Assembly: GCA_964473485.1 (NCBI GenBank)
Contig: CAYYPH010000019.1
Location: 2,668 to 66,667, forward strand
DNA from: an uncultured Prolixibacteraceae bacterium
GTDB lineage: Bacteria; Bacteroidota; Bacteroidia; Bacteroidales; FEN-979
Length of the DNA: 64,000 nt
Direction: 5' to 3'
Part shown: positions 3 to 62,514 of the stretch, one piece after another
Numbering within the stretch: position 1 is the stretch's first letter
Layout of the letters: each line of letters opens with the position of its first letter
Translations under genes and position numbers: made by a program
The notes under the pieces: model-generated
The model's input: only the letters and a program-made list of their open reading frames with translations
Told to the model about the DNA's origin: nothing
Databases searched by the model: none

Positions 3-977
3 CGGTGCCTCGCCACGATCTTTTCCGGGTTTGAAAAGGTCAGCGCCGGGCTTCCCCGGCCTGCCGACGCCATCAGCTTCGCCTTTCCGGGCCCGGCCGA
101 CTACGCCCTGGGGATCATCGGCGACCTCCCCAATTTCAGGGCCTTCAACGGCGGCGTTCCCCTGGGCCCCATGCTTGAAGAGCGTTTCGGGTTGCCGGTG
201 TTCATCAACAACGACGGGAACCTGTTCGCATACGGTGAAGCCCTGGCCGGTTTCCTTCCCGACCTGAACCGCCGGATCATCGAAAAAGGCGGCATCAAGC
301 AATTCCGCAACCTCGTCGGGCTCACCCTCGGCACAGGTTTCGGCTGCGGCATCGTGCTCAACAACATCCTGCTGGCCGGCGACAACTCGAACGACGCGGG
401 CATTCACAACACCTCCAACCTCTTCAACCCCGGCTGGAACGCCGAGGAGAGCGTCAGCACCCGTGCCATACAGCGGGTTTATTGCGAAGGTGCGATACTT
501 GATTCAACAACGCTGATGCCCAAAGACATTTACGATATCGCCAAAGGCGCCAAGGAAGGCAACCGCGAAGCAGCGCTCCGCTCCTTCAGGATTTTCGGTG
601 AAGCGCTGGGCAACTCGGTCGCCAACATGCTGACGCTGATCGACGGCATCGTGGTCATTGGCGGAGGACTGGCTGCGGCCTGGGACCTTTTTGCCCCCGC
701 CATGTTCAGGGAGATCGACAGGCAGTATGTGAATCCCGCCGGTGAAAAATTTTCAAGGGTCTCCGGGAAAGTATACAACCTGGAGGATGAACAGAACTTC
801 GGTGAATTTGCCCTCGGATCGGTCAGGTCGCTCCAACTCCCTTCATCCGGCAGGGTGATCGTTTACGATGAACTGCAGCGCAACGGGGTCGGGCTGTCGA
901 AACTCAGCGCCAGCCGGGCCATCGCCATAGGGGCAAACGCCTTTGCCGTTCAAAAACTGGGATCGGGAGGAAATTGA
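3..977 (+). CDS. ROK-family sugar kinase (glucokinase-like), 5' end cut by window edge
   Basis: Frame 3 is open from base 3. Translation ISFAFPGPADYALGIIGDLPNF...LPVFINNDGNLFAYGEA...GLTLGTGFGCGIV fits ROK kinases. Listed ORF 171..977 is only the part after an internal Met. Confidence 0.8.
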   Translation, partial: RCLATIFSGFEKVSAGLPRPADAISFAFPGPADYALGIIGDLPNFRAFNGGVPLGPMLEERFGLPVFINNDGNLFAYGEALAGFLPDLNRRIIEKGGIKQFRNLVGLTLGTGFGCGIVLNNILLAGDNSNDAGIHNTSNLFNPGWNAEESVSTRAIQRVYCEGAILDSTTLMPKDIYDIAKGAKEGNREAALRSFRIFGEALGNSVANMLTLIDGIVVIGGGLAAAWDLFAPAMFREIDRQYVNPAGEKFSRVSGKVYNLEDEQNFGEFALGSVRSLQLPSSGRVIVYDELQRNGVGLSKLSASRAIAIGANAFAVQKLGSGGN

Positions 978-1056
978 AAATTGAAAACGGAAAATTGAAA
1001 ACGGAATTTTGAATTTTGACATTTGACATTTGAATTTTGAATTTTGAATTTTGAAC
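972..1056. repeat. Mosaic tandem array: (GAAAATTGAAAACG)x2 then (TTTGAAT/TTTGACA)x7
   Basis: Read directly. It begins at the ROK stop codon (AAATTGA). It shares ATTGAAAATTGAAAACGGAAAA with 54931.. and TTTTGAATTTTGACATTTG with 35710.. and 60379... Confidence 0.9.
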
Positions 1057-11817: not shown

Positions 11818-11904
11818 TTTTTTTCGACTGTGTTCGAAATCAACTGTGATCGAAATGTTACCGTTAACTCCAAAGGGTTTGGCTTTGCCTGGTTGCCTCT
11901 TATT

Positions 11905-15861: not shown

Positions 15862-16036
15862 GTTTTAAGTTTTCAGTTCACAGTTTCCAGTTTAACCAAC
15901 TACCGACTGACATGCGGACTAGTGAGCAAGTGGACAAGCGGACAAGTTACCTTAACTGCAAACTGCCTAATGCCTACTGTCTATTGCCTACTGCCAATTG
16001 CCTATTGCCTATTGCCTATTGCCTTCTGCCTACTTG
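15862..16036. repeat. Mosaic array: (AGTTTTM)n, (GACAAGYG)n, (TGCCTAY)n
   Basis: Read directly. It starts at the RR2 stop codon (AAATAAGTTTTAAGTTTT) and ends with TGCCTATTGCCTATTGCCTATTGCCTTCTGCCTAC. Confidence 0.9.
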
Positions 16037-28370: not shown

Positions 28371-29024
28371 ATGAAATACACGGGAAATGAATATACAGAA
28401 CCTATCCGGATTGCCCTGGTAGAAGATGATAAAACCGTCAGGGAAGGATTGCAGATGCTCCTCAATGGCTCCCCCGGATTCACCTGCGTGGCTGCATACA
28501 ACAGCGGGGAAGATGCCCTTGCAGGGATTCCTGATATGCTGCCGGAAGTGACGCTTATGGACATCAACCTTCCCGGCATCAACGGTATCGAATGTATACT
28601 TAAGCTCAAGGAACAGCAATTACCCATTCTCTTCATCATGCTGACGGTTTTCGAAGACGCCGACGCCATCTTCCGGTCGCTTTCAGCAGGTGCATGCGGA
28701 TATTTACTCAAACATACCCCACCCGCAAAACTGCTGGAAGCCATCCAGGATGTCTACCGGGGCGGTTCTCCCATGTCGGGGGAGATCGCACGAAAGGTGG
28801 TTCAGTCATTTCAGCAGGTACCCGCAAAAAACCATGACCAGGCCAACCTGACGAAACGGGAAGAGGAGATCCTCAACCTCCTGTCGCAAGGATATTTTTA
28901 CAAAGAGATCGCCCATTCTCTTTCCATCAGCGTCGAAACCGTCCGCACCCACATTCGCAACATCTACGAAAAGCTACAGGTCAGGACCCGGACGGAGGCA
29001 ATTCTGAAGTACTTGGGAAAGTAG
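28371..29024 (+). CDS. NarL/FixJ (LuxR-type HTH) response regulator RR3
   Basis: IALVEDDKTVREGL...TLMDINLPGING; [46 protein letters not shown]. By eye about 70% identical to RR2. Confidence 0.9.
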   Translation: MKYTGNEYTEPIRIALVEDDKTVREGLQMLLNGSPGFTCVAAYNSGEDALAGIPDMLPEVTLMDINLPGINGIECILKLKEQQLPILFIMLTVFEDADAIFRSLSAGACGYLLKHTPPAKLLEAIQDVYRGGSPMSGEIARKVVQSFQQVPAKNHDQANLTKREEEILNLLSQGYFYKEIAHSLSISVETVRTHIRNIYEKLQVRTRTEAILKYLGK

Positions 29025-29064
29025 GCAGTAGGCAGTTTCAAGTTGGCAGTTGCCAGTTGGCAGT
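29021..29064. repeat. Heptamer array GTAGGCAG/AGTTGGCAG (reverse complement of the 12614 unit family)
   Basis: Read directly. The RR3 stop TAG is inside the first unit (AAGTAGGCAGTAGGCAG). Confidence 0.9.
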
Positions 29065-34734: not shown

Positions 34735-35511
34735 ATGCCCGGCTTTCTCTTTCACGACATCATATTCGGCCCTGTGCGCAGCAGGCGCCTCGGCCTTTCA
34801 TTAGGCATCAACCTGCTGCCCACCCATACAAAACTTTGCTCCTTCAATTGCATCTATTGTGAATGCGGCTGGACCCCGGAACAGACAGGAGATCATCATC
34901 TGCCATCCAGGGAGGAGATCGCCTCATTCCTTGAAATGCGCCTTCGCGAACTGGCTGCTGAATCCTACTTTCCTGACGCGCTGACCTACGCCGGCAATGG
35001 CGAACCAACGCTCCATCCCGACTTTGAAGGGATCGTGGATGACACCATCGCACTGCGCGACCGCTACACCCCCGGGTCAAAAGTCTCCGTGCTTTCAAAT
35101 TCAAGCAGGATCCATAAAGAAGATGTATTCCGCGCCCTGCTTAAACTCGATAACAACATTTTAAAGCTGGATGCGGGCAGTCCCGAAATGTTCCGGTTGA
35201 TCAACCAGCCCGCTGCCTCGGTCGACTTTGAACAGATGATCGGCAACCTTTGCAGGTTCAACGGAAAACTGATCATTCAAAGCCTGTTCCTGAGGGGTAG
35301 CTACAACGGCCAAAAGGTCGACAATACCATGCCGGAAGAGGTAGACCTGTGGATCGGCCATCTGTTGAAGATACGCCCACAACTGGTTATGATCTACCCC
35401 ATCGCCCGCGAAACGCCGGCACACGACCTGGAAAAGATCCCGCTGGATGAGTTGAACCACATCGCCGCACAAGTCGAAGCCGCTGGGATCAGGGCACAGG
35501 TATATCCGTGA
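34735..35511 (+). CDS. Radical SAM protein
   Basis: The start is trimmed to the ATG at 34735 (MPGFLFHDIIFGPVRSRRLG). Has the CxxxCxxC cluster CSFNCIYC. The subfamily is not assignable by eye. Confidence 0.8.
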   Translation: MPGFLFHDIIFGPVRSRRLGLSLGINLLPTHTKLCSFNCIYCECGWTPEQTGDHHLPSREEIASFLEMRLRELAAESYFPDALTYAGNGEPTLHPDFEGIVDDTIALRDRYTPGSKVSVLSNSSRIHKEDVFRALLKLDNNILKLDAGSPEMFRLINQPAASVDFEQMIGNLCRFNGKLIIQSLFLRGSYNGQKVDNTMPEEVDLWIGHLLKIRPQLVMIYPIARETPAHDLEKIPLDELNHIAAQVEAAGIRAQVYP

Positions 35512-35747
35512 CGCGGGACGCGTGACTGGTGACGAAATCGTGACGCGTGACGCGTGACAGGGGATAAAATCGTGACGGGTGACGAAATCGTGACAGGTGA
35601 CGCGTGACTGGTGACGGGAAAAGGATTGACTGAATGATTGAATGATTGATTGATTGATTGATTGGCTGAATCTTTTCCCTATTGCCTATTGCCTAATGCC
35701 TATTACCTGATTTTGAATTTTGACATTTGAACTTTGAATTTTGACTT
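35507..35747. repeat. 240-bp mosaic array: (GTGACGC/GTGACGG)n, (GATTGAAT/GATT)n, (TGCCTAT)n, (TTTGAAT/TTTGACA)n
   Basis: Read directly. The radical SAM stop TGA is part of the first GTGACGC unit. The array ends 3 nt before the ATG of 35751. Confidence 0.95.
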
Positions 35748-39147: not shown

Positions 39148-39585
39148 CTATGACGGCCAGTGCAGTTTTTTTCCAAAACCGAGACGGTTGTCAGTGAATT
39201 TCAGAACCGAAGGAACGAGCAGCCAGAGATGCAGTTCAGGAGCCAGGCGGGCTATGGGAAACCTTTTATAATAAACTTTTGTATACCTCGACACCTGATC
39301 GGTCGAGACCTTTGAAAGGAGCCCCTGAAACTGAATCCCCCTAATCTTCCCGACCAGCCTTGTTTCAAGCGCAATCGCCCCTGCCACCAGGTTCTGCCCC
39401 CCTTCTTCCACATCCCGGATGTGACGGGTCTCAGGGCCTGAAGTGAATAAAAACCGGTTCTCATCCTGCAGGTAAACATAATAACAGGTGGCGCACCAGG
39501 GAACGTTATCCCTGCAAACGGCCAGGGTGAGAATATGGTGATCGAGAATGAACTCAACCATTCGCTGATCGGGTGATTCCATCAT
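39148..39585 (-). CDS. Pyridoxamine 5'-phosphate oxidase-like (YhbP/general stress 26-like) FMN-binding family protein
   Basis: 145 aa; HILTLAVCRDNVPWCATCYYV...FLFTSGPETRHI resembles the split-barrel PNPOx fold family. Its start overlaps the upstream stop (TAATG). Confidence 0.55.
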   Translation of the reverse strand: MMESPDQRMVEFILDHHILTLAVCRDNVPWCATCYYVYLQDENRFLFTSGPETRHIRDVEEGGQNLVAGAIALETRLVGKIRGIQFQGLLSKVSTDQVSRYTKVYYKRFPIARLAPELHLWLLVPSVLKFTDNRLGFGKKLHWPS

Positions 39586-42500
39586 TAAAAATCAAGACTT
39601 AAGGAAAAATAAAAAACCGGCTTCCTGATCCGCCCATCTTCCACTCCCCAGGCCAGGTCACCCCTGAGAAAATAACCGAACAGCCGGGTACGGGCGCCGA
39701 ACCCGAACCCCTCCACAATGGGATCCTTGATCATCTCCACCTTGATGAATAAAGGATTCCTGTAAATGTACCGGGTAAAAAGCTGGTTATCTTCCGACCA
39801 GGGCGAGGTGCCGGTCCACGCCGTGCCGACATCCCCGAAAGCCACGATCTGGAAATTGTTGATAAAGTCGCTCCTTATCGGTCGGTTGAAGAGATAACGA
39901 AATACCGGCCACCTTATCTCGGTATTGAAAACAAAGAAGCTGTTCCCGTTGCGGATATTCTGACTGAACCCGCGCATGTTGGTGGCAAGCGTCTGGAAGG
40001 CATAATTCTGGTCAAAGGCAACCGGAGTGTTGGCATCGAACGAGGGTATCAACCAGTTGTCGACACCGCCCAGGTAATACAGCAGTTTGTTGCTGCCCCA
40101 CGAAGTGCTGATGGCGAAACGGTTCGCCCATATCAGCATCCGGTGCAACCGCTGGTAGTTCCTGAAATCGGCACCCACCACGGTCACGTTGTTCCCACGG
40201 CTGTTCACCATCTGGTAATACTCCCCGAAGATCTTGTAACGGGTTCCCTTGAAGAGATTGACGCCGAGACTCCTGGTGTTATCGTAGGTCAGCTCTCCCT
40301 TTATGCTTCCCCATACATTGTGAATGTCAGGCTGTTCCAGATTCACCGGATCGGTCGAAAGATAAACGGCCCTATCGTACCTTACCGATGCCGTTCCTTT
40401 GATGTTCAAAACAGGGTTGAACGGGTAGGTGGCCACATAGTATAATTCATGTATCCGGTGCCGGATCAGCGAATAATAACCCGTCTCCTCCACCGATTTG
40501 CGGTGAAATACGATCTGGTGGTCGAGCCGTCTCTTGTAATTTCCATAACTGAACAGGTATTCGTTATTGATGAGGCTGATGTTTAACCGCACCCCGCCAC
40601 TGATCCTGTGATCCTCCATCAGGTCGGTGACCCCGATCATAAAGAGCGCATTCAGACCGGGATTCACGAATACCGGGGTAGCGCTTCCCGTGAATGGCTG
40701 GTAGGCAAAGTTCAGGTAGGTAAAATCGATCTGGGTGACCATCTGGTCGATATAATATTCCACATTGTAATTCAGCTGTTTGGCATTCCGGTATTTGTTG
40801 GCAGTATCCTTGGAAGCCTCACCTCCCTTGCGTGGTTGCGGGAAAAATATCTGGTACCGGTTAAGAAGTGTACGTCCGGTGCTGTCATCAGTCAGCTCCT
40901 CCAGGGTAAAGGTGCTGTCGCGGCCAACCCCGCTCGTATCAAGCTGTGCCATGATCTGGTTGACCACATCGCTCCGTCTTACAATATAAAAATGTCTTTT
41001 GCCCGATGTACGGAATGGTTCAGCCAGCTTAAGCGGTTGTTCTGGTACTGAATCCTGAATGATAATACCCGGTGCAGGAACAGCCGCAGGTTTCATTGGC
41101 CTCACCGGGGGGAGGTCAACCTTCTGAACATGTTTCGGCCTCACCAGGTCGTCGGTGAACATCCGGTAATTGCCACCGGTGAAAATAATCTCGCCCATCC
41201 GTCCGGCCTTGACCGAGACATCCTGCTCAAGGATATTCCGGTTGTAATTCGTCACAGGGAAGGTAGTGGTGAAATACCTGTAATGGGTCGTGGTGTCAAT
41301 ATAGGCAATGGTGCTGTCGTACCTCCCCAGGTAACGCGAAATAATGCCCGACTGATCGCTGAGGAAGGTGAAATAATTCTCTCCGTATGGCATGGGCTGG
41401 ATCTCATGCACCCCTGCAGTGGCGGTCAAACGCTGAAGAGTGGGTCGCCGGGCGGCGTAATGGTATATGAAGAGATCGTGGTCGTACCGCAATGAGTCGA
41501 TCCGGTAAGGTTCATTGAAACGGATGGTGTCGCCAGGGCGGTTGGAGGAAAAAATAATGTCAGCCGAATGATTGAAAAACCTGGGATTCAGATCATTGTA
41601 AATATCTTTGGTGATCTGTTCGTGAGATCCGGATGCGATGTTGTAAACAAATATGTCCGACTGCCCTTGCTGCACTGCCGACATTACCAGGCGGGTCCCG
41701 TCATCGGAATAGGAGATGTCGAGCACCTTCTGGAAATTGACGAGCAACTGGTACTCCTTCGACTTGTCTTCGAGGCTGTAAAATCCCAGCCACACGCCGC
41801 CCTTTCGTTCAATGATATAAGCCAGGGCCCTGCCCGACGGATGCCATGCCAGCAGGGGATAACTGTAATCGGGGCGGTCGGCCAGGCGGTATCCGCCCCT
41901 GTACACCCGCTTCTTTTTCCCGGTTTCGGCATCCTGTATGAATATTTTATAGATGCCCAGGTTGTGTACGGCATACGCTATCTTCTCACCCGCCGGATCG
42001 ATCTTCAGAGAGTGATAGACCCGGTCGGGCTTGTTTCGTTTATTCACCGGCGTACCCTGCCTTTGCATCCTCACCGAATCTTGGTAAGCATAATGCTGGC
42101 GGTAATAATTCATCCATTCCTGCAAAAGGTTTGCAAAACTGATACCCAGCACAGCCTGGAACCCCTTCTCCACATTCCTGCTCAGCCGCGCCATATATAC
42201 AATATTGGGGATGGTCTGGGCCCCGTAATTCTTTTCCACATAATTCCACAGGCTGTGACCGGCATTCGTGGCATCCATCCCGCTGAGGCTGTTGAATTTG
42301 TCGTACTTCCGGCTCACGATGGCGTCATGTACATAGTTCTCGATGTCGGCATCCCATTTCCGCGAGATAAAGGATATCAGTCCGTAAAGATACCAGTCGG
42401 GAACCGTGAACAAGGCGGTATTCTTGATCTGCGACCCGATACCGGTGCCGTAGATCATGTTGTTGAGGATCACCTGGGCAATTCCTGCTCTGATCTGCTG

Positions 42501-42944
42501 GTCGAAATGTTCGTAATTGCCGTCGAAAAATAGCAACACCCGTCCGCCGATGATCCTCGTCACTCCGCCGGTGTTATAATACTCCCAGTCGCCAAACAGG
42601 CCGATATTGCTCTGCTTCAGGTCCGACAACGAATTGAAGATGATGAACTGCACCTTCTCCTCAAGGTTCGATTGCAGCGACAATTCAATCTCCCGGATAT
42701 GCTTGTCGGCATATTCGGCCGTGTACAGGGCCAGTTCACGGCCATTCAGATAATAATAGGTGTCGAATTTGTCGAACCTGAAGTGAAGCCATAGAAAATT
42801 GTTGTACTGTACCCGGCTTTTCCCGAACGTGAGCTGCGAACCATTGTAAAACTGAGCAAATGAGGGGACATTGAAGAGCAGCATCAAAAAAAATCCTGCA
42901 ACTATCCATTTTCTGATATGCAGCAACCCCGTGCGGTTCGTCAT
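39585..42944 (-). CDS. Large outer-membrane protein: N-terminal domain, TolB-like PD40 propeller repeats and C-terminal Omp85-type beta-barrel
   Basis: Signal peptide ...LLFNVPSFAQ. PD40-like LAWHPSGRALAYIIERKGG, ISYSDDGTRLVMSAVQQGQSDIFVYN and NPRFFNHSADIIFSSNR. The C-terminal third has alternating beta pattern and ends ...FYFSLSLDF (terminal Phe). Confidence 0.55.
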   Translation of the reverse strand: MTNRTGLLHIRKWIVAGFFLMLLFNVPSFAQFYNGSQLTFGKSRVQYNNFLWLHFRFDKFDTYYYLNGRELALYTAEYADKHIREIELSLQSNLEEKVQFIIFNSLSDLKQSNIGLFGDWEYYNTGGVTRIIGGRVLLFFDGNYEHFDQQIRAGIAQVILNNMIYGTGIGSQIKNTALFTVPDWYLYGLISFISRKWDADIENYVHDAIVSRKYDKFNSLSGMDATNAGHSLWNYVEKNYGAQTIPNIVYMARLSRNVEKGFQAVLGISFANLLQEWMNYYRQHYAYQDSVRMQRQGTPVNKRNKPDRVYHSLKIDPAGEKIAYAVHNLGIYKIFIQDAETGKKKRVYRGGYRLADRPDYSYPLLAWHPSGRALAYIIERKGGVWLGFYSLEDKSKEYQLLVNFQKVLDISYSDDGTRLVMSAVQQGQSDIFVYNIASGSHEQITKDIYNDLNPRFFNHSADIIFSSNRPGDTIRFNEPYRIDSLRYDHDLFIYHYAARRPTLQRLTATAGVHEIQPMPYGENYFTFLSDQSGIISRYLGRYDSTIAYIDTTTHYRYFTTTFPVTNYNRNILEQDVSVKAGRMGEIIFTGGNYRMFTDDLVRPKHVQKVDLPPVRPMKPAAVPAPGIIIQDSVPEQPLKLAEPFRTSGKRHFYIVRRSDVVNQIMAQLDTSGVGRDSTFTLEELTDDSTGRTLLNRYQIFFPQPRKGGEASKDTANKYRNAKQLNYNVEYYIDQMVTQIDFTYLNFAYQPFTGSATPVFVNPGLNALFMIGVTDLMEDHRISGGVRLNISLINNEYLFSYGNYKRRLDHQIVFHRKSVEETGYYSLIRHRIHELYYVATYPFNPVLNIKGTASVRYDRAVYLSTDPVNLEQPDIHNVWGSIKGELTYDNTRSLGVNLFKGTRYKIFGEYYQMVNSRGNNVTVVGADFRNYQRLHRMLIWANRFAISTSWGSNKLLYYLGGVDNWLIPSFDANTPVAFDQNYAFQTLATNMRGFSQNIRNGNSFFVFNTEIRWPVFRYLFNRPIRSDFINNFQIVAFGDVGTAWTGTSPWSEDNQLFTRYIYRNPLFIKVEMIKDPIVEGFGFGARTRLFGYFLRGDLAWGVEDGRIRKPVFYFSLSLDF

Positions 42945-49546: not shown

Positions 49547-50890
49547 ATGATACAACTGAAGATTGATACCAGTAAAACAAGTCCGTTTGTTGGTGAAAAA
49601 TGCCTGCCCCGCTTCCAGGAAGAAATCAGCAAATGCCATCATGCCTTGGTGGCTGGCAATGGAAAAGGCAATGATTTTCTCGGGTGGAGAGACCTTCCGG
49701 TCATGATCGGCGGGGACCTGCTCCAAAGAATCATCAGCGATGCAGAAAAAATCAGGAAACAAGCCGAAATATTTGTTGTGATCGGCATCGGTGGCTCATA
49801 CCTGGGAGCCCGCGCCGTGATCGACGCCCTGTCGGATCCGTTTGAACATGTGCACCATGCGAACACAGGTCCGCTGATCGTTTATGCGGGCGAAAATTTG
49901 AGCGAGGATTATCATGCACGACTGATGACCCTGCTCGATAAAAAAGATTATGCCGTCGCCGTCATTTCCAAGTCAGGCACCACCACCGAACCTGCCGTGG
50001 CCTTCAGGCTCATCCGCAACCACATCGAATCAAAATACGGTAAAGAGGGGGCCCGCCAAAGAATCTACGCCGTTACCGATGCCCGCCGGGGAGCGCTGAA
50101 GACCCTTGCCGATACCGAGGGTTATTCCACCTACGTGATCCCCGATGATGTCGGTGGCAGGTATTCTGTTCTTACCCCGGTCGGACTGCTGCCGATCGCC
50201 GTGGCAGGCTTCGACATCCGGTCGCTGATCGAAGGCGCGCGCGCCATGCGCGAAGTCGCCATGTCAACGGACGACTGTGAGAAAAATCCCTGTACCCTCT
50301 ATGCAGCCGTAAGGAATATCCTTTACCGCAACGGCAAATTCGTCGAGATCATGGTCTCATACGAACCCGGGATGCTCTATTTCATCGAATGGTGGAAACA
50401 GCTTTACGGCGAAAGTGAAGGCAAAGAAAAGATGGGGATCTTTCCTGCAGGTGTCACCTTTACCAGCGATCTTCATTCTATGGGACAGTACATCCAGGAG
50501 GGTTCCCGCATTCTCTTCGAAACCGTTGTCTCGGTAAGCAATCCCAGGCATGAACTGACCATCCCGGTGGATCCTGAAAATCTCGACGGACTTAATTTCC
50601 TCTCTGGAAAACGGATGAGTGAAGTAAACCTGCAGGCTGAGCTCGGAACCTTGCTGGCCCATGTCGACGGCGGAGTTCCCAACATCCGGATATCCATCCC
50701 GGCCATCAATGAACGCAGCCTCGGCGAACTGATCTATTTTTACGAATTTTCCTGCGCAATAAGCGGATATGCCCTGGGGGTCAACCCGTTCGATCAGCCG
50801 GGTGTGGAAGCATACAAGAAAAATATGTTCGCCCTTCTCGGAAAACCTGGGTTCGAAAAAGAGACGGAAATTTTACGCGGAAGGCTTTGA
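49547..50890 (+). CDS. pgi: Glucose-6-phosphate isomerase
   Basis: GIGGSYLGARAV, ISKSGTTTEP, GGRYSVLT, ESEGK, NPFDQPGVE. Confidence 0.9.
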   Translation: MIQLKIDTSKTSPFVGEKCLPRFQEEISKCHHALVAGNGKGNDFLGWRDLPVMIGGDLLQRIISDAEKIRKQAEIFVVIGIGGSYLGARAVIDALSDPFEHVHHANTGPLIVYAGENLSEDYHARLMTLLDKKDYAVAVISKSGTTTEPAVAFRLIRNHIESKYGKEGARQRIYAVTDARRGALKTLADTEGYSTYVIPDDVGGRYSVLTPVGLLPIAVAGFDIRSLIEGARAMREVAMSTDDCEKNPCTLYAAVRNILYRNGKFVEIMVSYEPGMLYFIEWWKQLYGESEGKEKMGIFPAGVTFTSDLHSMGQYIQEGSRILFETVVSVSNPRHELTIPVDPENLDGLNFLSGKRMSEVNLQAELGTLLAHVDGGVPNIRISIPAINERSLGELIYFYEFSCAISGYALGVNPFDQPGVEAYKKNMFALLGKPGFEKETEILRGRL

Positions 50891-50891
50891 T

Positions 50892-51485
50892 CTAAGCAGG
50901 GATATCCCCCTCTGTCTTTTTTCCCAGGACCAGCTGTTCAATAACCACGGGGAAATGCCGGTACTCGAGCTGGTGTATCCTGCCGGCCAGCGTCTCAGCG
51001 GTGTCTCCCTGCAATACGGGGCAACGGGCCTGAAAAACAACGGATCCTTCGTCGTACCGTTCATTCACATGGTGGATGGTAATTCCTGATTCATGGTCGC
51101 CTGAATCAAGAACGGCCTGGTGAACTTTCATTCCGTACATCCCCTTTCCTCCGTATCTGGGAAGGAGTGCCGGATGGATATTGACGATACGCCCTGCGAA
51201 ATGATGCAGAATATTGGCAGGTACCAGCCAGAGAAACCCTGCCAGGATAATGTAGCTTACATTCTGCACCGTCAGCAGGTCAAGCACATAATCGGTATCG
51301 TATAACTCCTCACGCGAAAACACCACGTGGGGTATGTGAAGTTTTTGTGCCCTTTCGAGGACTAACGCGCCTGGATTGTTACTTAATATCAGGTCAACCC
51401 TGATCCGGGGATGATCCCTGAAATACTCGGCGATACGCTGTGCGTTGGTTCCGCTCCCGGAGGCGAAGATGGCAAGTCGGTGCAT
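50892..51485 (-). CDS. purN: Phosphoribosylglycinamide formyltransferase
   Basis: IFASGSGTNAQ...AGFLWLVP...NIHPALLPRYGGKGMYG...HESGITIH. Confidence 0.9.
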   Translation of the reverse strand: MHRLAIFASGSGTNAQRIAEYFRDHPRIRVDLILSNNPGALVLERAQKLHIPHVVFSREELYDTDYVLDLLTVQNVSYIILAGFLWLVPANILHHFAGRIVNIHPALLPRYGGKGMYGMKVHQAVLDSGDHESGITIHHVNERYDEGSVVFQARCPVLQGDTAETLAGRIHQLEYRHFPVVIEQLVLGKKTEGDIPA

Positions 51486-53279: not shown

Positions 53280-54026
53280 TTGAGGATCAGACCAGCAAAA
53301 CCGGTCGTTTCTGAATACTTTTCCGATAAAACTCTCAGACAGGCCATAAAAAGTATTTTCGGGTACAAACCCGGAAATATCTTTTTGTACCACCAGGCCT
53401 TCCTGCACCGCTCAGCCAGCCAGGAATCTGGTAACGGCATCAGGATCAACAACGAACGTCTTGAATTCCTTGGCGACGCCATCCTCGATGCCGTTTCAGC
53501 CGACTACCTCTTCAAAACCTTCCCAACGCGCGACGAAGGATTCCTGACCGAGATGCGGTCGAAGATCGTCAGCCGCAACATGCTGAACAAACTCAGCCAG
53601 AAACTTGGCATCGATAAGCTGGTGCTGGTCGACAACGCCTCATCCGGAGCCTTCAAGTCGTTCAGAGGCGATGCCTTCGAAGCCCTCATCGGGGCGATGT
53701 ACCTCGACAAGGGGTATGAATTCACCCGCAAGGTCCTGCTTGAACGAATCATCCGCCAGTATTTCGACATGGATGACCTTGTAAACCAGGAGGTCAATTT
53801 TAAAAGCCGTATCATCGAATGGGCCCAGCGCGAAAAAAAACAGGTGCAGTTCATCGTGGCCGAAGAGGTGGGATCAGGGTACAAAAAACAGTATATCGTC
53901 GACCTGGTGGTCGACGGAACCACCATTGCCTCCGGCAGGGATTACTCCATCAAAGGAGCGGAACAAAACAGCAGTGAAAAAGCCTGGCAAAAAATAAATG
54001 GAGAAACCATTGACCTTAAAGGCTAA
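53280..54026 (+). CDS. rnc: Ribonuclease III
   Basis: Signature ERLEFLGDAIL and a C-terminal dsRBD-like region. The start is TTG per the ORF track and there is no upstream in-frame ATG. Confidence 0.9.
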   Translation: MRIRPAKPVVSEYFSDKTLRQAIKSIFGYKPGNIFLYHQAFLHRSASQESGNGIRINNERLEFLGDAILDAVSADYLFKTFPTRDEGFLTEMRSKIVSRNMLNKLSQKLGIDKLVLVDNASSGAFKSFRGDAFEALIGAMYLDKGYEFTRKVLLERIIRQYFDMDDLVNQEVNFKSRIIEWAQREKKQVQFIVAEEVGSGYKKQYIVDLVVDGTTIASGRDYSIKGAEQNSSEKAWQKINGETIDLKG

Positions 54027-54065: not shown

Positions 54066-54536
54066 ATGCCCAGGAAGTTCATCCACTCCTCTTCACCCGA
54101 TTCCCCATCCTATACCATTTTGGGGATCTCCTGTCACCTGAAAGATTACCGGCTTTCGTTTATGCTCAACAGGCAGGCGGGTTTCGAACTCTCGAAGCTG
54201 GATGATTTCAATGGATTTTCGTTCTATTCCTGCCGGGATGACGATACATTCAACACCTATTTCCTTCTTGCAAACCGGAATACCGAGGGGGTGCTCCTGC
54301 CCGAACTCAAACAAACCGACTACATGCTGATTGTGGAAGGGCCATACAAGAAAACCCGGAAAGAGAAACTACTCGAGAATATCCGCGCAATCCAGAACAT
54401 TCTCACTGCCTTCGAAATCCGCTTCGAAACCATCCGTAACTGGGAGACTCTCCTTAACGACCTTGAACTGCATTATATAAAATTAAACAAAGAAGCAAAA
54501 ACCACATTTTCTCACCTTAAAAAACAGGAGGATTAA
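54066..54536 (+). CDS. Probable IPExxxVDY-family protein (Bacteroidota-specific small protein)
   Basis: 156 aa immediately after rnc and contains LPELKQTDY, matching the [IL]PExxx[VT]DY pattern. The family is recalled from memory only. Confidence 0.45.
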   Translation: MPRKFIHSSSPDSPSYTILGISCHLKDYRLSFMLNRQAGFELSKLDDFNGFSFYSCRDDDTFNTYFLLANRNTEGVLLPELKQTDYMLIVEGPYKKTRKEKLLENIRAIQNILTAFEIRFETIRNWETLLNDLELHYIKLNKEAKTTFSHLKKQED

Positions 54537-54538
54537 CC

Positions 54539-54889
54539 ATGCTCGAAGAATTGAAAAAATCAATCGACAAAGGTCTTGACTATGCATTCATGACCGGCGA
54601 AAAACTGGCCCAGGCCGCCAAAGACATGGCCAAGGAAAACAAGCTTACCAAGGAAGAAGCGAAAAAACTGCTGGACCACCTGAAGGCCAAATCGGATGAA
54701 ACCCGCAAAAACATTGAAAACGAACTCCAGGAAGCCATCAGGAACACCCTGAAAAAGATGAATGTCGCCACCCTCGAGGACCTGAAAAAAATGGAAGCCC
54801 GCATTAAAAAACTGGAAAGCGCCAAAAAACCACCCGCAAAGCCAAAAGCGAAACCGGCGGGAGCACCTGTGGCCAAGGTGAAGAAGTAG
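54539..54889 (+). CDS. Coiled-coil, Lys-rich small protein (phasin-like)
   Basis: 116 aa, predicted helical/charged (KEEAKKLLDHLKAKSDETRKNIENELQE), with tail AKKPPAKPKAKPAGAPVAKVKK. Its stop codon is the first base triplet of a tandem-repeat array. Confidence 0.5.
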   Translation: MLEELKKSIDKGLDYAFMTGEKLAQAAKDMAKENKLTKEEAKKLLDHLKAKSDETRKNIENELQEAIRNTLKKMNVATLEDLKKMEARIKKLESAKKPPAKPKAKPAGAPVAKVKK

Positions 54890-55090
54890 GAGAAGGGAGA
54901 AGGGAGAAGGGAGAAGGGAGAAGGGAGAATTGAAAATTGAAAACGGAAAACGAATTGACAATTGACAATTGACAATGGACAATTGAAAATGAATTGAAAA
55001 TTGAAAATTCACTCATTCACTCATTCACTCACTCTTTTATTTCACGCGTCACGCGTCACGATTTTTTCCCCGTCACGCGTCACGATTTTC
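54887..55090. repeat. Mosaic array, left arm of the inverted pair flanking the ubiB-like gene
   Basis: (GGAGAAG)x5, GAAAATTGAAAACGG, (ATTGACA)x4, GAAAATT, (TTCACTCA)x3, CTCTTTTATTTCAC, (GCGTCAC)n. Confidence 0.95.
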
Positions 55091-55128
55091 TCTTCGCCGT
55101 ATAGTTTTTTAACGTTTATCTGCCTGCC

Positions 55129-56778
55129 ATGAAAAAGTCCAGGATCGGTCTCGCGGTTCATGAAATCGGCCGTGCCCGCGAGATTGTCGGAATTGTTGTG
55201 AAATACGGCCTCAGCGAATGGGTGACCAGTTCCGGGTTCGGGAAGCTTTTTGTGTCGAAGAAGCGTTTGATGCGTCTTGAACAATACAACCAGTGGGAAC
55301 GCATCAGGATGGCCATCGAAGAGTTGGGGCCTACTTTCATCAAATTCGGCCAGATACTGGCCGACCGGCCCGATATTATCCCCGAGGGGTTACGTGAGGA
55401 GCTGAAAAAGTTGCAGGATGAGGCCCAGCCCATGGCCGATGAACTCGCCATTGCCGAAATCGAAAAGGAACTTGGCCGGCCGGTTAGTGAAGTATTCAGG
55501 GAATTCGACAAAAACCGCATCGCGTCGGCCTCAATCGCACAGACGTATAAGGCGGTGCTCCTCAACGGCGAAGCGGTTTGCGTCAAGATCCAGCGCCCGG
55601 GTATCGAGAAAAAGATCGAACTGGACCTGAACCTGATGAGCTTCTTTGCGAACAGGATGCAGCACAACAATCCCGAAATAGAAGCCATCAACCTGAAAGG
55701 CGTGGTCAGGGAATTCGGCAAAACCATCCGAAAAGAGATCGATTTCCACAATGAGGCGGCCAATGTGATCAGGTTTTTACACAACTTCGCGAACGATCCC
55801 GATATCCGCGTTCCAAAGGTGTATACCAATTACACCACCCGCAGAATCCTCATCGAAGAGTGGATCCAGGGCATCAAGGTTCGGGATCTTGAAAGCCTGC
55901 TACGGTCAGGGAACGATCCGAAAATACTTGCGAAAAAGGGAATGAGGCTGGTCTTCGAACAGATTTTCAACCACGGGTTCTTCCATGCCGATCCGCACCC
56001 GGGGAATATCTTCGTGCTGGAAAATAACGTGGTCTCATTTATCGACTTCGGTATGATGGGAACCCTTCGACCCGATCACCTGCGCTTTATCGGGAAATAT
56101 GTACTGGGATACCTCGACCGCGACGCCTACGCCATGAGTGAAGCGCTCGTCATGATGTCGGGCAAGCGCAATTTCCATGGCTTTAAAGACCTCGAATTCA
56201 GGATCGGCGACATGCTCGCCCAATATAAATTTCTCAGCATTGAGGAGATGGATTTCTCAAGGATCCTGAACGAATCGATCGACATTCTGGTGCATTACGG
56301 TTTACGAATCCCTTCGGATATTTACCTGTTGCTGAAGGCGCTGATGGCGATCGAACGGGTGGCCGTCATGCTCGATCCGCACATCGATTTTGCGCTTGAA
56401 ATGAGACCCTACGCCATCGACCTGATCGCCAAACAATTCAGTCCGAAGTTTATCGCCCGCGAAATTTTCGAATCCCTGAAAGAATACTATAAACTGATCC
56501 GCGAACTCCCCTCCGATCTTAATGAGATCATTTACGACATCAAGGATGGAAGGTTCAAGACCCAGATCGAAGTAAAGGGACTTGAACCCCTGATCAACCA
56601 TATCGACAGCGCCAGCAACCGCATGGCCGTCGCCGTTGTACTGGCCGCCCTGATCATCGGCGGCTCCATCATCTCACAATGGGATCAGACCAGGCTCGTC
56701 GGAGCGATTGTTTTCGGCCTGGCAGGAATCCTCGGTTTTTATCTGCTCATCACCCTTTTCAGAAGAAACAAGTTCTGA
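55129..56778 (+). CDS. ABC1/UbiB-family atypical kinase
   Basis: FIKFGQILADRPD, ASIAQTYKA, HADPHPGNIF, IDFGMMG, and two C-terminal TM helices. Confidence 0.85.
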   Translation: MKKSRIGLAVHEIGRAREIVGIVVKYGLSEWVTSSGFGKLFVSKKRLMRLEQYNQWERIRMAIEELGPTFIKFGQILADRPDIIPEGLREELKKLQDEAQPMADELAIAEIEKELGRPVSEVFREFDKNRIASASIAQTYKAVLLNGEAVCVKIQRPGIEKKIELDLNLMSFFANRMQHNNPEIEAINLKGVVREFGKTIRKEIDFHNEAANVIRFLHNFANDPDIRVPKVYTNYTTRRILIEEWIQGIKVRDLESLLRSGNDPKILAKKGMRLVFEQIFNHGFFHADPHPGNIFVLENNVVSFIDFGMMGTLRPDHLRFIGKYVLGYLDRDAYAMSEALVMMSGKRNFHGFKDLEFRIGDMLAQYKFLSIEEMDFSRILNESIDILVHYGLRIPSDIYLLLKALMAIERVAVMLDPHIDFALEMRPYAIDLIAKQFSPKFIAREIFESLKEYYKLIRELPSDLNEIIYDIKDGRFKTQIEVKGLEPLINHIDSASNRMAVAVVLAALIIGGSIISQWDQTRLVGAIVFGLAGILGFYLLITLFRRNKF

Positions 56779-56783
56779 AAAAC

Positions 56784-56916
56784 CGTGACAAAATCGTGAC
56801 GGGTGAAGCGTGACGCGTGACGGGTGAAATAAAAGAGTGAGTGAATGAGTGAATGAGTGAATTTTCCGTTTTCAATTTTCAATTGTCAATTGTCAATTGT
56901 CAATTGTCAATTGTTA
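56784..56916. repeat. Mosaic array, right arm (reverse complement of the left arm)
   Basis: (GTGACNN)n, GTGAAATAAAAGAG, (TGAGTGAA)x3, TTTTCCGTTTTCAATTTTC, (AATTGTC)x5. 56824..56865 is the exact reverse complement of 55004..55045. Confidence 0.95.
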
Positions 56917-56933
56917 ATTTTTCTTTCCCGGCG

Positions 56934-57974
56934 CTAAAGTGCTCCTGTAAACTGGCGGAGAAACCTTACGTCGTTCTCAAAGAACAGCCTCAGGTCGCGG
57001 ATCTGGTATTTCAGCATCGTGATGCGTTCGATGCCCATACCGAAGGCATAACCGGTGTACTTCCGGCTGTCGATCCCGCAATTCTCAAGCACATTGGGAT
57101 CAACCATACCGCATCCCAGGATCTCGACCCAGCCGGTGTTCTTGCAGATGTTGCACCCCTTGCCACCGCATATATTACAGCTCACATCCATCTCGCCCGA
57201 TGGCTCGGTGAAGGGGAAATAACTGGGCCGCAGCCGGATCTGCGTCTGCTCCCCGAACATCTCACGGGCAAAATGCAATAGGGTCTGCTTCAGGTCGGCA
57301 AACGACACTTCCCGGTCGATATAGAGCCCTTCCACCTGGTGAAAGATGCAGTGGGCCCGGGCCGAAATGGCCTCGTTGCGGAAAACGCGACCGGGAAAGA
57401 TCTTCCGGATCGGGGGTTGGCTCCTCTCCATGGTGCGTATCTGCACAGAAGATGTGTGTGTACGTAAAAGTATTTCAGGATCCGTGGAGATGAAAAAGGT
57501 GTCCTGCATGTCGCGCGCCGGGTGGTCGTGGGCAAAGTTGAGGGCCGTGAAATTATGCCAGTCGTCTTCGATCTCGGGACCCTCCTCCACAGTAAACCCG
57601 ATCCGCCCGAATATGTCGATGATCTCGTTGCGGACGATCGAAAGGGGATGACGGGATCCTGGCTGCATGTGATCGCTCGGCCTCGTCAGGTCGGCCATCC
57701 CTGAACCCTCTTCCGCTTTCCTTTCAAACTGTTGCTTCAGGCTGCCGATCTTCTCCTGTGCCTGGTTCTTAAGGTCATTCAGCAACAGGCCGATCTCGCG
57801 CTTCTGATCATTCGGCACCGACTTGAAATCATCGAACAGCGCCGGAATCACCCCCTTCTTGCTAAGATAACGTATCCGGAGTTGCTCCACCTCCTCTGCG
57901 TGCTGCGCAGTGAGGCGGCCGATCTCCTCCAGCAGGTCAAGAATCCTCGATTTCATTGATTTGAAATTGGCCAA
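56934..57974 (-). CDS. pheS: Phenylalanine--tRNA ligase alpha subunit
   Basis: HPARDMQDTFF, FRNE, FHQVEG, FPFTEPSGEMDV, GMGIERITML. The track start is TTG at 57974; the ATG at 57956 is an alternative. Confidence 0.95.
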   Translation of the reverse strand: MANFKSMKSRILDLLEEIGRLTAQHAEEVEQLRIRYLSKKGVIPALFDDFKSVPNDQKREIGLLLNDLKNQAQEKIGSLKQQFERKAEEGSGMADLTRPSDHMQPGSRHPLSIVRNEIIDIFGRIGFTVEEGPEIEDDWHNFTALNFAHDHPARDMQDTFFISTDPEILLRTHTSSVQIRTMERSQPPIRKIFPGRVFRNEAISARAHCIFHQVEGLYIDREVSFADLKQTLLHFAREMFGEQTQIRLRPSYFPFTEPSGEMDVSCNICGGKGCNICKNTGWVEILGCGMVDPNVLENCGIDSRKYTGYAFGMGIERITMLKYQIRDLRLFFENDVRFLRQFTGAL

Positions 57975-59022: not shown

Positions 59023-59589
59023 ATGAAAAACGCAATGTATGGAAATGACATGGACCGGATGCCCGACTGGGCATTCAAAACCATGGCCTTCTTGTTCCGG
59101 GTCACCGACCTGTTCAAATCACCGGCCGGGAAACTCAATCCCTTTAACATTCAAAAGGGCCAGACCGTGGTCGATTACGGTTCGGGAACCGGCAGGTACC
59201 TGGAACAGGCAGCGATGCTGGTCGGTCCGGGCGGAGTCGTGTACGCAGTTGACATTCAACCACTCGCAGTTGAAGCGGCAAAAAAAGTGGCCGTAAACTG
59301 CTCACTTCCCAACATCAGGCCGGTCCTCACCGACGGAAAATCTGTGAACATCCCGGATGGTTCTGCCGACATAATCTATGCCCTCGACATGTTCCACATG
59401 GTCAGTGACCACAAGGGATTCCTGGGCGAACTTAACAGGATCGCCAGACCTGGCGGCCTGTTGTTTCTTGAAGATGGTCACCAGCCGCGCGAAAGATCAA
59501 GAGAAAAAGTCGTAAATTCGGGCCAATGGGAAATCGTGGAAGAGACCAAGGGGTTTATGAAGTGCAGGAAAATCAAAATGAAAAGTTAA
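59023..59589 (+). CDS. Class I SAM-dependent methyltransferase
   Basis: Motif I VVDYGSGTGRY and DIIYALDMFH. The C-terminal codons (KIKMKS) already belong to an A-rich tandem array. Confidence 0.8.
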   Translation: MKNAMYGNDMDRMPDWAFKTMAFLFRVTDLFKSPAGKLNPFNIQKGQTVVDYGSGTGRYLEQAAMLVGPGGVVYAVDIQPLAVEAAKKVAVNCSLPNIRPVLTDGKSVNIPDGSADIIYALDMFHMVSDHKGFLGELNRIARPGGLLFLEDGHQPRERSREKVVNSGQWEIVEETKGFMKCRKIKMKS

Positions 59590-59640
59590 AAAGCAAAGTG
59601 AAAAGTCGAAAATCAAAATCAAAAATCAAAATACAAAACC
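59568..59640. repeat. A-rich degenerate tandem array (AAAATCA / GAAAAGT units)
   Basis: Read directly. It spans the last codons and the stop of the methyltransferase gene. Confidence 0.75.
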
Positions 59641-59641: not shown

Positions 59642-60280
59642 ATGAAAATTTTGATTCTGGGGGCCACAGGGCGCACAGGCGGCAGGATCGCCACAATGGC
59701 TAACAACTCCGGCCATAAAGTAACAGCCATCGTCAGAAACCTTCAGAAAGCCACGCTGCCGTTTGTGGAGTATATGGAAGGTGCACCTGCCGACGGTGCC
59801 CTGCTCACCCGAACATTGACCGGCATCGACGCCGTGGTGGTTGCGCTGAATATCAACCGGGTATCCGATAATCCATGGGCAAAAGTAGCCTCCCCGCTCA
59901 CCCTGATCTCTGACACCGTCAGCGCGCTCATCCCGGCCATGGAACAGAACGGTGTGAAGCGGATCGTGACCATCAGCGCATCGGGGGTGGGAGATTCGTG
60001 GAGCGATATGCCGTTGGCCGGCAAACTCTTCATCCGGTATTCGAATATCTGGAAAGCCTACCTTGATCACGACCGCCAGGAGAAACTGCTTCGCTCGTCC
60101 GGCCTCGACTGGACCATCGCCCGTCCCGTCATGCTGAATGACAAACCTTCGGAAAACTACCGGACCGCAACAGGAAAAGCGCTTTCACCCTCCATCCCGC
60201 GCAATGCCGTGGCAAAATTCGTGGTCGACACACTGGAGCAGCGAACGCACATCAGGGAGATAGTGGCATTGTTTGAATGA
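59642..60280 (+). CDS. NAD(P)H-binding (atypical SDR / NmrA-like) protein
   Basis: N-terminal Rossmann motif MKILILGATGRTGGRI. The stop TGA is part of the first unit of a repeat array. Confidence 0.8.
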   Translation: MKILILGATGRTGGRIATMANNSGHKVTAIVRNLQKATLPFVEYMEGAPADGALLTRTLTGIDAVVVALNINRVSDNPWAKVASPLTLISDTVSALIPAMEQNGVKRIVTISASGVGDSWSDMPLAGKLFIRYSNIWKAYLDHDRQEKLLRSSGLDWTIARPVMLNDKPSENYRTATGKALSPSIPRNAVAKFVVDTLEQRTHIREIVALFE

Positions 60281-60416
60281 GTGATTGAGTGAATGAGTGA
60301 ATGAAAAATTGATTGAATGATTGATTGATTGATTGATCTATTTTTCCCTAATCGCTAATCCCTAATCCCCAATCCCTAATTTTGAATTTTGACATTTGCA
60401 TTTTGAATTTTGAATT
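60275..60416. repeat. Mosaic array: (GAGTGAAT)n, (GATTGAAT/GATT)n, (CCTAATC)n, (TTTGAAT/TTTGACA)n
   Basis: Read directly. It lies between the convergent SDR and tdk genes, and its module order parallels 35624..35747. Confidence 0.95.
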
Positions 60417-61094: not shown

Positions 61095-61160
61095 GGTGAA
61101 CAGGTGAGCAGGTGAACAGGTGAACAGGTAAGCAGGTGAACAGGTGAGCGGGTGAGCAGG
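61095..61160. repeat. Octamer array (CAGGTGAA/CAGGTGAG) x ~8
   Basis: Read directly. It lies in the divergent region between tdk and 61168. Confidence 0.9.
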
Positions 61161-62364: not shown

Positions 62365-62374
62365 AGCGGGAATG

Positions 62375-62412
62375 GCCCCCTCCCAACCTCCCCCAATCGG
62401 GGGAGGAGTAAG
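62375..62412. repeat. G/C-rich hairpin element L (probable terminator of 61168..62364)
   Basis: CCTCCCCC-aatc-GGGGGAGG (62387..62406) followed by AGTAAG. Confidence 0.7.
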
Positions 62413-62469
62413 CGCTCTGAAATGAAATGGTTTAAGACAGGTTATATTGACATACAAGAATCTTTGAAT

Positions 62470-62514
62470 CCCATCTCCCTTCCCCCGACTTGGGGGAAGG
62501 GCCGGGGATGGGGG
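62470..62514. repeat. G/C-rich hairpin element R, inverted copy of L (probable terminator of dusB)
   Basis: CCCTTCCCCC-gactt-GGGGGAAGGG (62477..62501), nested in CCCATC...GATGGG. Its reverse complement aligns with element L. Confidence 0.7.

Follow-up and report, generated by a model that had tools for sequence, protein, structure and literature searches.

Heptanucleotide 'long SSRs' (long simple sequence repeats, or LSSRs) were reportedly described by Mrazek et al. in 2007. Along with the short tandemly repeated repetitive sequences (STRRs) of cyanobacteria and the TAACTGA repeats, they are the closest counterparts of the arrays that we study in this paper: units of 7-8 nt are repeated head to tail, several units occur in a single spacer, nearly all of the arrays are intergenic, and they often abut stop or start codons. 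In Bacteroidetes, mixed assemblages of heptamers occupy spacers whose orthologues in close relatives lack them, and they interrupt assemblies (PMC4679880); Gramella, Aequorivita and Elizabethkingia are among the genera with TAACTGA repeats and such mixed assemblages (MacGregor 2015, PMC4679880). Here we consider a stretch of 64,000 nt (64 kb) from an uncultured Prolixibacteraceae bacterium (contig CAYYPH010000019.1), which we call the window, and in which two arrays of this kind, in opposite orientation, bracket ubiB, a gene for a kinase of the ABC1/UbiB family. We refer to the array between the upstream phasin-like gene and ubiB as the left arm, and to the array between ubiB and pheS as the right arm (Table 1).

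The locus is a member of this known and poorly understood class of intergenic heptamer arrays. Tandem units, an intergenic site, polymorphism of unit number and recurrence across loci and genomes are all found here. As in the LSSR, STRR and TAACTGA arrays, moreover, an array may be absent from the orthologous spacer of close relatives and may break short-read assemblies, and neither the function nor the mechanism of spread has a known explanation. The arrays here nevertheless differ from those described before in their units, which are AATTGAC, CGTCACG, ATTCACTC, GGAGAAG and others. They differ also in that the loci share the order of several modules, together with the junctions between them, so that they are homologous composites, and in that they are concentrated in convergent spacers, at the 3' ends of genes. 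Finally, one copy in the window is an insertion polymorphism, and it lies inverted, 1.7 kb from its closest relative.

We interpret the bracket around ubiB, with a probability of about 0.7, as an incidental by-product of array spread: an element of a dispersed family would have been copied ectopically from a template, with no dedicated recombinase and with no conserved role for ubiB. In the following we describe the repeat itself, the polymorphism of its left arm and the family to which both arms belong, and we weigh other explanations against the evidence as it arises.

The perfect inverted repeat is 43 nt long. The first-pass annotation of this DNA, made from its letters alone, had paired the 42-mer at 55004-55045 with 56824-56865 as exact reverse complements; this is correct, and the true perfect match is one base longer. 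Ungapped extension of the core in a repeat search yields 72 nt at 94% complementarity (54992-55063 against 56806-56877), and a gapped local alignment carries the homology to about 140 nt (54949-55089 against 56779-56915), with 125 of 146 columns identical and an arm identity of 94.7% over the ungapped columns. The imperfect similarity that had been claimed beyond the core is thereby borne out. The core is more than a periodic repeat; a non-periodic 20-mer at its junction, CACTCACTCTTTTATTTCAC, occurs within the window only in the two arms, even with up to three mismatches allowed, and it occurs in none of 100 shuffles. Each arm is a block of about 150 bases of short tandem repeats, the two blocks flanking ubiB in opposite orientation. 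In both of them the AATTGAC / GAAAATTGAAAACGG modules are outermost and the GCGTCAC modules are proximal to the gene, and between them lies the ABC1/UbiB open reading frame (ORF) alone, with a leader of about 40 nt. The layout of the modules and the single enclosed gene are as the earlier annotation had described them.

We collected conspecific contigs from many independent samples by exact-sequence look-up of the UbiB and phasin proteins of the window. In 11 samples the spacer between the phasin-like gene and ubiB is an identical 71 nt with no arm in it (TAG GAGAAGGGAGAAAGGAGAAGGGGGTTTTCTTTTCTCACAACATGTAGTTTAAAAACGTTTATCTGCCTGCC ATG), on contigs that are 99.2-99.7% identical to the window on both flanks. 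BLAST homology to this empty allele breaks at 54911 and resumes at 55102, so that 190 nt of the window stand in place of 22 nt and the filled spacer measures 239 nt. The right arm is kept in all conspecific contigs that reach it, and only its unit numbers differ. A sister lineage, L127, was found through the UbiB protein cluster (UbiB 98.5% identical in amino acids, DNA 90-96% identical). Its phasin-ubiB spacer is empty too, with two single-nucleotide polymorphisms (SNPs) relative to the common empty allele, and the empty state is therefore ancestral. Thus, both the presence/absence polymorphism and its polarity are established: the left arm, of about 190 nt, was inserted in a derived allele, and that allele is the minor one.

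Outside the window we find the left arm only in L090, a Logan contig of 1,838 nt (SRR12133403, recorded for two samples). This contig starts and ends inside the two arms, as is expected for a repeat longer than the assembler's k-mer, and it supports the core and the inner left arm, joined to the start codon of ubiB. The outer left arm (54912-55002) is present in the window assembly only, and contigs of the same haplotype in Logan stop at 54915-54917, inside (GGAGAAG)n, with two of the four ending in a different fourth unit, GAGAAAG. These last observations might be taken to mean that the left arm is an artefact of assembly, either a chimeric join or a fold-back through the repeats of the right arm. 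We consider this very improbable, however, given that L090 is an independent contig, recorded for two samples, that makes the same join to the start codon; furthermore, it carries the sequence GATTTTTTCCCCGTCACGCGTCACGATTTTCTCTTCGCCGTATAG, which is absent from the right arm, and a fold-back origin is thereby excluded.

Whether relatives possess ubiB without the bracket can be answered at greater distances as well. By its UbiB relatives the host belongs among uncultured freshwater Bacteroidales, deposited under names that include Prolixibacteraceae and Draconibacterium metagenome-assembled genomes; the closest other species is 84% identical in UbiB. The left arm is absent from the 11 conspecific assemblies, from L127, and from all 26 related species examined. 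Alignment of the spacers of these 26 species revealed no homologous array upstream of ubiB and no cross-gene inverted repeat around it, the upstream spacer scoring 14-29 against the reverse complement of the downstream spacer, as compared to 186 in the window. The gene order phasin-ubiB-pheS is kept in most of these species, down to about 65% UbiB identity; ubiB is a conserved, single-copy housekeeping gene in fixed synteny. The first-pass annotation had entertained the idea that ubiB is a mobile cassette bounded by the arms. The geometry fits this idea, and is all that does; but the gene order is conserved in species none of which has the arms, and strains identical in UbiB lack one of them. 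Cassette mobilisation is contradicted by this synteny, and we give it next to no credence.

Both arms are copies of one dispersed family of compound short-tandem-repeat elements. About ten spacers of the window are filled with compound arrays of 4-, 7- and 8-nt units, and arrays of period 7 and period 8 were detected by Tandem Repeats Finder (TRF) in both arms and at eight other loci. Among pairwise local alignments of 10 array loci of the window, the best-scoring pair is that of the two arms (score 186, inverted). The second is that of loci A5 and A9 (score 130, direct), which are alike over about 125 nt, across three modules and the junctions between them. In addition, an exact 23-mer, AATTGAAAATTGAAAACGGAAAA, is common to the partial member A1, the left arm and the right arm. 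A family element measures roughly 150-260 nt. Its sub-arrays have units of 4, 7 or 8 nt and succeed one another in much the same order, which reads, from 5' to 3', a purine tract, AATTGAAAA/AAAATTC, AATTGAC or AGGCAAT/GGGATTA, ATTCACTC/AATC, and CGTCACG. A5, A9, the right arm and the L127 right spacer (that is, its ubiB-pheS spacer) all have this order on the minus strand; the left arm alone has it on the plus strand. The first-pass annotation had foreseen that the arms might simply be two ordinary members of the array family in opposite orientation. Membership of a dispersed family is confirmed; their orientation is less ordinary than had been supposed, since the left arm alone is opposite to the three other related members in the window.

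The arrays behave as slippage-prone SSRs. Among strains that are at least 99% identical, units amounting to 4, 7, 8 and 24 nt have been gained or lost in the right arm and at loci A5, A9 and A10. An exact-protein look-up of the gene downstream of A1 returned no record of further strains. Loci A5 and A9 stand 24.6 kb apart, and their common modules are GATTGA/GATT, followed by CCTATTG or CCTAATC, followed by AATTTTGA. Arrays of a different type, (ACTGCCW)n, occur at 12616-12667, 15964-16032 and 29019-29064, each directly 3' of one of three paralogous genes for LuxR/NarL-type response regulators (11962-12603, 15208-15861 and 28371-29024). The third of these arrays is inverted with respect to the other two, and all stand before genes for HisKA_3 kinases or for proteins secreted by the type IX secretion system (T9SS).

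Table 1. Arrays, genes and family members at and around ubiB, in window coordinates, with the strand where one is assigned.
Feature	Positions	Strand	Remarks
Phasin-like gene	54539..54889	+	Pfam PF05597, E 7e-7; stop codon abuts the left array
(GGAGAAG) x5.9 purine array	54889..54929	+	TRF; three units already in the ancestral empty allele
Left arm, strain-specific segment	54912..55101	+	Replaces 22 nt, GGTTTTCTTTTCTCACAACATG, of the common allele; BLAST break
Family-wide 23-mer module AATTGAAAATTGAAAACGGAAAA	54928..54950	+	Exact copies at 972-994 (+) and 56862-56884 (-)
(AATTGAC)n module	54952..54990	+	Palindrome CAATTG in each unit
Left copy of the 43-nt core	55003..55045	+	(ATTCACTC)3 plus non-periodic junction CTCTTTTATTTCAC
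Interrupted (TCACGCG)n module, gene side of left arm	55042..55087	+	TRF
ABC1/UbiB-family kinase gene (ubiB)	55129..56778	+	Pfam PF03109, E 9e-78
(CGTGACN)n module of right arm	56779..56827	+	TRF; begins at the ubiB stop codon
Right copy of the 43-nt core	56824..56866	-	In every conspecific contig reaching so far; 3 or 4 GAGTGAAT units
(TTTTCAA/TTGTCAA)n module of right arm	56860..56921	+	TRF; unit number differs among strains
Pyrimidine tract TTTTTCTTTCCC	56918..56929	+	Complementary to (GGAGAAG)n of the left spacer; full (CTCCCTT)n array in L127
pheS	56934..57974	-	Pfam PF01409, E 2e-98; convergent with ubiB
Family member A5	35507..35744	-	Module order as in the arms; fixed in five strains
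Family member A9	60268..60416	-	Homologous to A5 over ~125 nt; carries (GAATGAGT)n like the arms
Partial family member A1	971..1055	+	Has the exact 23-mer and an (AATTTTG)n module
Compound array spacers of the window	971-1055, 12616-12667, 15859-16032, 29019-29064, 35507-35744, two arms, 59569-59638, 60268-60416, 61095-61160		

How might the left arm have arisen? The right arm is the resident array of the convergent ubiB-pheS spacer; for the left arm we infer an ectopic copy, made from a template, that was placed in the short spacer between the phasin-like gene and ubiB. The candidate routes are a template switch onto the right arm during replication, gene conversion from a closely related member of the family, or a mixture of the two. 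In the first case, the nascent leading strand of a leftward fork would leave its template at about position 55090 for the lagging template, which is single-stranded there and 1.7-1.85 kb further back; having copied the right arm, it would rejoin at the purine tract and leave an inverted copy. Microhomologies at both junctions fit such templated copying. At the outer junction the purine sequence GGGAGAA matches GGGAAAGAAAAA, the reverse complement of the pyrimidine tract of the right arm (56918-56929), and at the inner junction TTTTC/TTTTG is present in both sequences. On the plus strand, seven of eight 8-kb bins have a negative GC skew, in stretches where genes point both ways, which suggests a leftward-moving fork. 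In its inverted copy near the template, its junction microhomology and its lack of a recombinase, the left arm resembles the template-switch duplications (quasipalindromes and fork switches) known in bacteria, and the distance of 1.7-1.85 kb lies within one Okazaki fragment. Classical cases, however, involve tens of bases, and the mismatches and indels between the arms point to extra steps or to another donor.

Several observations do weigh against our interpretation, at least in its simplest form. The arms differ at about 5% of ungapped positions, plus several indels, whereas arrays comparable from strain to strain, such as A5 and the right arm, are nearly free of substitutions; consequently, the left arm was not freshly copied from the right arm as it is now. 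The inner left arm is in fact closer to A5 than to the right arm (92% over 39 nt to 35546-35584, by BLAST), and the outer left arm fits the right spacer of L127, in direct orientation, better than it fits its own partner. Moreover, eight substitutions private to the filled allele lie within 26 nt (55085-55110), inside the right junction, and such a cluster goes beyond simple insertion. The donor may therefore have been a family member that we have not seen, or else the allele may be older and mosaic, perhaps reshaped by gene conversion among arrays.

Exchange of this kind among arrays is plausible. The A9 arrays of strain L082 and of L127 carry GACTGAAT units, which occur in the window only at A5, and the right spacer of L127 mixes modules of the arms, A5 and A9. 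Compared across a genome divergence of about 5%, whole modules have been inverted or exchanged. The L127 spacer in question (11651-11913) is 263 nt long, with a module set unlike that of the window; its first 50 nt are orthologous to the 56779-56827 module of the right arm. Its AATTGAAAA/AATTGAC module is inverted with respect to the right arm of the window, and so has the orientation of the left arm. Further modules in it are CACGGTC, CCTATTG and AATTTTGA, and a full (CTCCCTT)n array adjoins pheS.

We searched for a donor matching the left arm in conspecific, sister-lineage, metagenome, viral and plasmid data, and found none there. BLAST of the left arm against plasmids and phages returned no match. 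A metagenome scan with the junction 20-mer returned two unrelated chance matches and missed the resident right arm likewise (for example, that of JGI contig L083). Given that the right arm is present in every conspecific contig, such a scan is uninformative for this species. Scans of viral contigs for (GAGTGAAT)3 and (CGTGACG)3 found a few arrays, some of them forming hairpins, mostly on unrelated contigs of 40-73% GC; none of these qualifies as a donor, and such units arise repeatedly. Two of the viral contigs, both from IMG/VR and of unrelated GC content, carry arrays paired with inverted copies: L103 has (GAGTGAAT)n at about 4278, beside other arrays that pair with their own inverted copies, and L112 has (CGTGACG)n at about 4819, paired with an inverted copy of itself. 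Hairpins of palindrome-containing heptamer arrays thus seem to arise repeatedly. Introgression from a close sister species may have occurred, but no candidate donor lineage is among those sampled: a collection of 5.8 billion clusters holds no UbiB of 84-98.5% identity, and the lineage at 98.5% carries the empty allele.

An alternative to incidental copying is that the compound arrays are true mobile non-coding elements, akin to REP/BIME (repetitive extragenic palindromic sequences and bacterial interspersed mosaic elements) or to miniature inverted-repeat transposable elements (MITEs), copied into hairpin-like sites of spacers by a trans-acting enzyme encoded elsewhere in the genome, and that the left arm is a fresh transposition. 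The conserved module order at four or more loci, and the clean presence/absence polymorphism of the left arm, are what one would expect of such elements. So is the recurrence of the heptamer ACGCGTC and of the octamer ACATCAGC in 5 species each. The site of insertion is suggestive as well: the empty allele already has a 12-bp hairpin, GAGAAAGGAGAA-GGGGG-TTTTCTTTTCTC (for example, L081 9930-10000), and the left arm is inserted between its purine arm and its pyrimidine arm. The G/T-rich sub-arrays of A5 and A9 likewise sit inside short purine/pyrimidine inverted repeats, GGAAAAG...CTTTTCC in A5 (35617-35678) and GAAAAAT...ATTTTTC in A9 (60303-60346). This choice of a hairpin loop may be a clue to how arrays are seeded, or it may be a coincidence of composition, for the hairpin is not significant when compared with shuffles.

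Despite these points, we regard a mobile element as doubtful. Comparison of the filled with the empty allele reveals a 22-nt replacement with no target-site duplication, and the hallmarks of MITEs are reduced to microhomology at the ends, the terminal inverted repeats being limited to the purine/pyrimidine match. No copy matching the left arm was found, nor anything similar in plasmid and phage databases, and the window contains neither a transposase nor a RAYT-like gene (for a REP-associated tyrosine transposase). The members of the family also vary widely in modules and unit number, as would result from slippage and recombination rather than from copying of a defined element. The REP/BIME of enterobacteria and pseudomonads do resemble the present arrays: they too are short, dispersed, non-coding repeats at the 3' ends of genes, often in inverted pairs and variable among strains, and they too are candidates for roles in termination or mRNA stability. 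They differ, however, in being imperfect palindromes of about 35 bp tied to RAYT transposases, whereas the arrays here are direct repeats of 7-8 nt in a window without a RAYT.

A broader version of this idea can be formulated, which we advance tentatively and to which we attach a low, though not negligible, likelihood. Compound 7-8-nt arrays would be self-propagating modular non-coding elements that seed in purine/pyrimidine hairpins at the 3' ends of genes and spread as multi-module cassettes in either orientation. The route could be a dedicated hairpin-targeting enzyme or a systematic template switch at the fork.

Because the arms are complementary, it is important to consider whether the bracket itself might do something for ubiB. 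When the arms are cofolded as RNA, their net binding is about -117 kcal/mol, compared with -6 +/- 3 for shuffled arms, in a nearly continuous duplex whose pairing reaches outward to (GGAGAAG)n on the left and to TTTTTCTTTCCC (56918-56929) on the right. Each arm folded alone does no better than its shuffles (z-scores of -0.1 to -0.8), and nothing therefore competes with the long-range pairing. One might suppose, then, that co-transcribed arms clamp the 5' and 3' untranslated regions (UTRs) of the transcript together, and that RNase III processing or mRNA stabilisation regulates ubiB in this way. There is no terminator-like site between ubiB and the right arm, and the RNase III gene, rnc, lies at 53280-54026. 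There is a partial precedent in Haemophilus influenzae, where control through an SSR in the 5' UTR reportedly involves RNase III processing, with a heptanucleotide SSR (PMC12721329). That system is similar in that a heptanucleotide SSR stands upstream of a gene and an RNA structure is the target of RNase III. The element in H. influenzae is reportedly a conserved, local one within the 5' UTR, whereas here the pairing would be with the 3' UTR, at a distance of 1.7 kb, and the 5' partner lacks conservation even within the species. An RNA clamp is unlikely for this locus, since ubiB does not need the left arm: it is missing from the 11 conspecific assemblies, the sister lineage and all 26 relatives. 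Rfam returned no match to the arms at E<=1, a tRNA scan was also empty, and transcription of the left arm is itself putative.

The same geometry might allow the arms to recombine, flipping ubiB as an on/off switch. In the invertons of Bacteroidales, short repeats (about 10-30 bp) enclose promoter segments of a few hundred bp; a serine or tyrosine recombinase is encoded close by, and populations contain both orientations. Our locus resembles them in that inverted repeats flank a segment in a Bacteroidales genome. At 43 bp, inside a 72-bp match of 94%, its perfect core would be longer than RecA-dependent exchange minimally requires, and the ends of L090, inside the arms, are as for repeat collapse in an assembly graph. 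In contrast to an inverton, however, the segment is a whole housekeeping gene, one arm is missing in most strains, and a single orientation is seen: every contig that spans the locus reads phasin>ubiB><pheS, the window itself being the only one to span the two-armed allele. Neither Pfam scans of the large ORFs in the 64 kb nor the gene table of a sibling contig revealed a recombinase or transposase, in agreement with the earlier annotation, which had seen no recombinase near ubiB. As ubiB is conserved, single-copy and in fixed synteny, and the arm required for inversion is missing in most strains, an invertible switch seems improbable to us.

Neither pairing nor inversion can be a conserved design, since most strains, and all the relatives examined, have a functioning ubiB with no left arm. 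In strains that do carry it, the arms may pair as a duplex of about 150 bp if they lie on one transcript, or could recombine through RecA at the 43-bp core; such potential is more likely a liability than a device. We infer that the bracket has no conserved role in the expression, inversion or mobility of ubiB. We might speculate that the left arm does slight harm to its carriers; its low frequency, and the fact that it is oriented against the fixed members, would be in keeping with this.

Two local roles for the arms were considered and rejected. As terminators, they fold no better than shuffles, nor does the 12-bp hairpin of the empty allele differ significantly from dinucleotide shuffles. 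As promoters, they do contain TTGACA, the sigma-70 -35 consensus, which the AATTGAC units yield every 7 nt on the sense strand of each arm (54955-54990 and 56861-56917). These account for 6 of 8 promoter-like matches in a sigma-70 scan, and they probably do not matter to a sigma factor of the Bacteroidetes. Neither allele contains the Bacteroidetes-type consensus TTTG-N19-21-TAnnTTTG, and a -7 box with one mismatch, TAGTTTTT at 55102, present only in the filled allele, is too weak to use. There is, in short, no convincing promoter in the arms.

We also examined arrays across the clade, in a pool of 416 kb that comprises the window and 29 loci of related species (30 sequences, about 85% coding). 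Arrays of period 7 or 8 are intergenic in 89 of 97 cases. With the ubiB flanks excluded, convergent spacers contain 5.7 arrays per kb of spacer, tandem spacers 1.3 and divergent spacers 0.31, and no array was found in promoter-only spacers near ubiB. Periods 7 and 8 predominate across all 81 sequences analysed with TRF, the count for period 4 being set aside as unreliable. In several relatives the ubiB-pheS spacer contains a local hairpin formed by an array and its inverted copy. Across the pool an inverted partner lies within 200 nt of 13 of the 97 arrays, compared with 4 in random controls; this enrichment is real, yet it concerns a minority, and inverted partners are not the norm for these arrays. 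The convergent spacer between the genes for PGI and a formyltransferase contains (GTCACGC)n arrays in three related species, L001 (at about 2026), L012 (about 1950) and L022 (about 2121), that of L012 forming a hairpin. In the window (50890-50892) the two genes are about 1 nt apart and there is no array.

Several features of the surrounding DNA deserve mention in their own right. In most of the relatives examined (L001-L035), the phasin-like gene lies just 5' of the ABC1/UbiB kinase gene, across a short spacer, an adjacency that suggests a conserved operon linking a protein of the lipid-granule type with an ABC1 kinase. About 500 nt upstream of the left arm, four SNPs private to the window haplotype are clustered within 69 nt (54324-54392) of a gene for a hypothetical protein of 156 amino acids (aa). 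All four are shared by four Logan contigs (from SRR28923671/5/6/80), and the cluster looks like a short recombination import. The segment at about 5200-34600, apparently strain-specific, encodes an AAA_14/DUF4143 protein, four HisKA_3 kinases, three LuxR-type regulators and several T9SS-tailed proteins of BNR, Kelch and peptidase type. In ERZ15185028 NODE_519 and JGI Ga0248167_1001065 a DUF5005 gene lies directly 5' of the radical-SAM gene whose start in the window is at 34624. The sibling strains L082, L083 and L127 have a toxin-antitoxin-like pair (DUF6364 and PIN) between the gene for a 398-aa protein and the Dus gene, which the window (62365-62514) does not have. For two long ORFs, 39585-42944 (-, 1119 aa) and 22280-23602 (+, 440 aa), Pfam gave no match at E<=1e-5.

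How heptamer arrays originate and spread, be they STRRs, TAACTGA repeats or long SSRs, has been unexplained since they were first described. As the bracket is most probably incidental, it says little in itself about ubiB or about DNA switches. What the locus does offer is a natural before-and-after pair, with and without a complete multi-module cassette, at about 99.5% genome identity, and with a sister lineage that fixes which state came first. It indicates that whole composites, and not single units alone, are copied between spacers, and that they can be inverted in the process. The bias of arrays towards convergent spacers and the 3' ends of genes provides a testable lead, namely a tie to transcription termination or to encounters between replication and transcription. 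Should the arrays prove to be self-propagating, the left arm would be an insertion caught in the act, and its matched empty and filled alleles would expose the mechanism.

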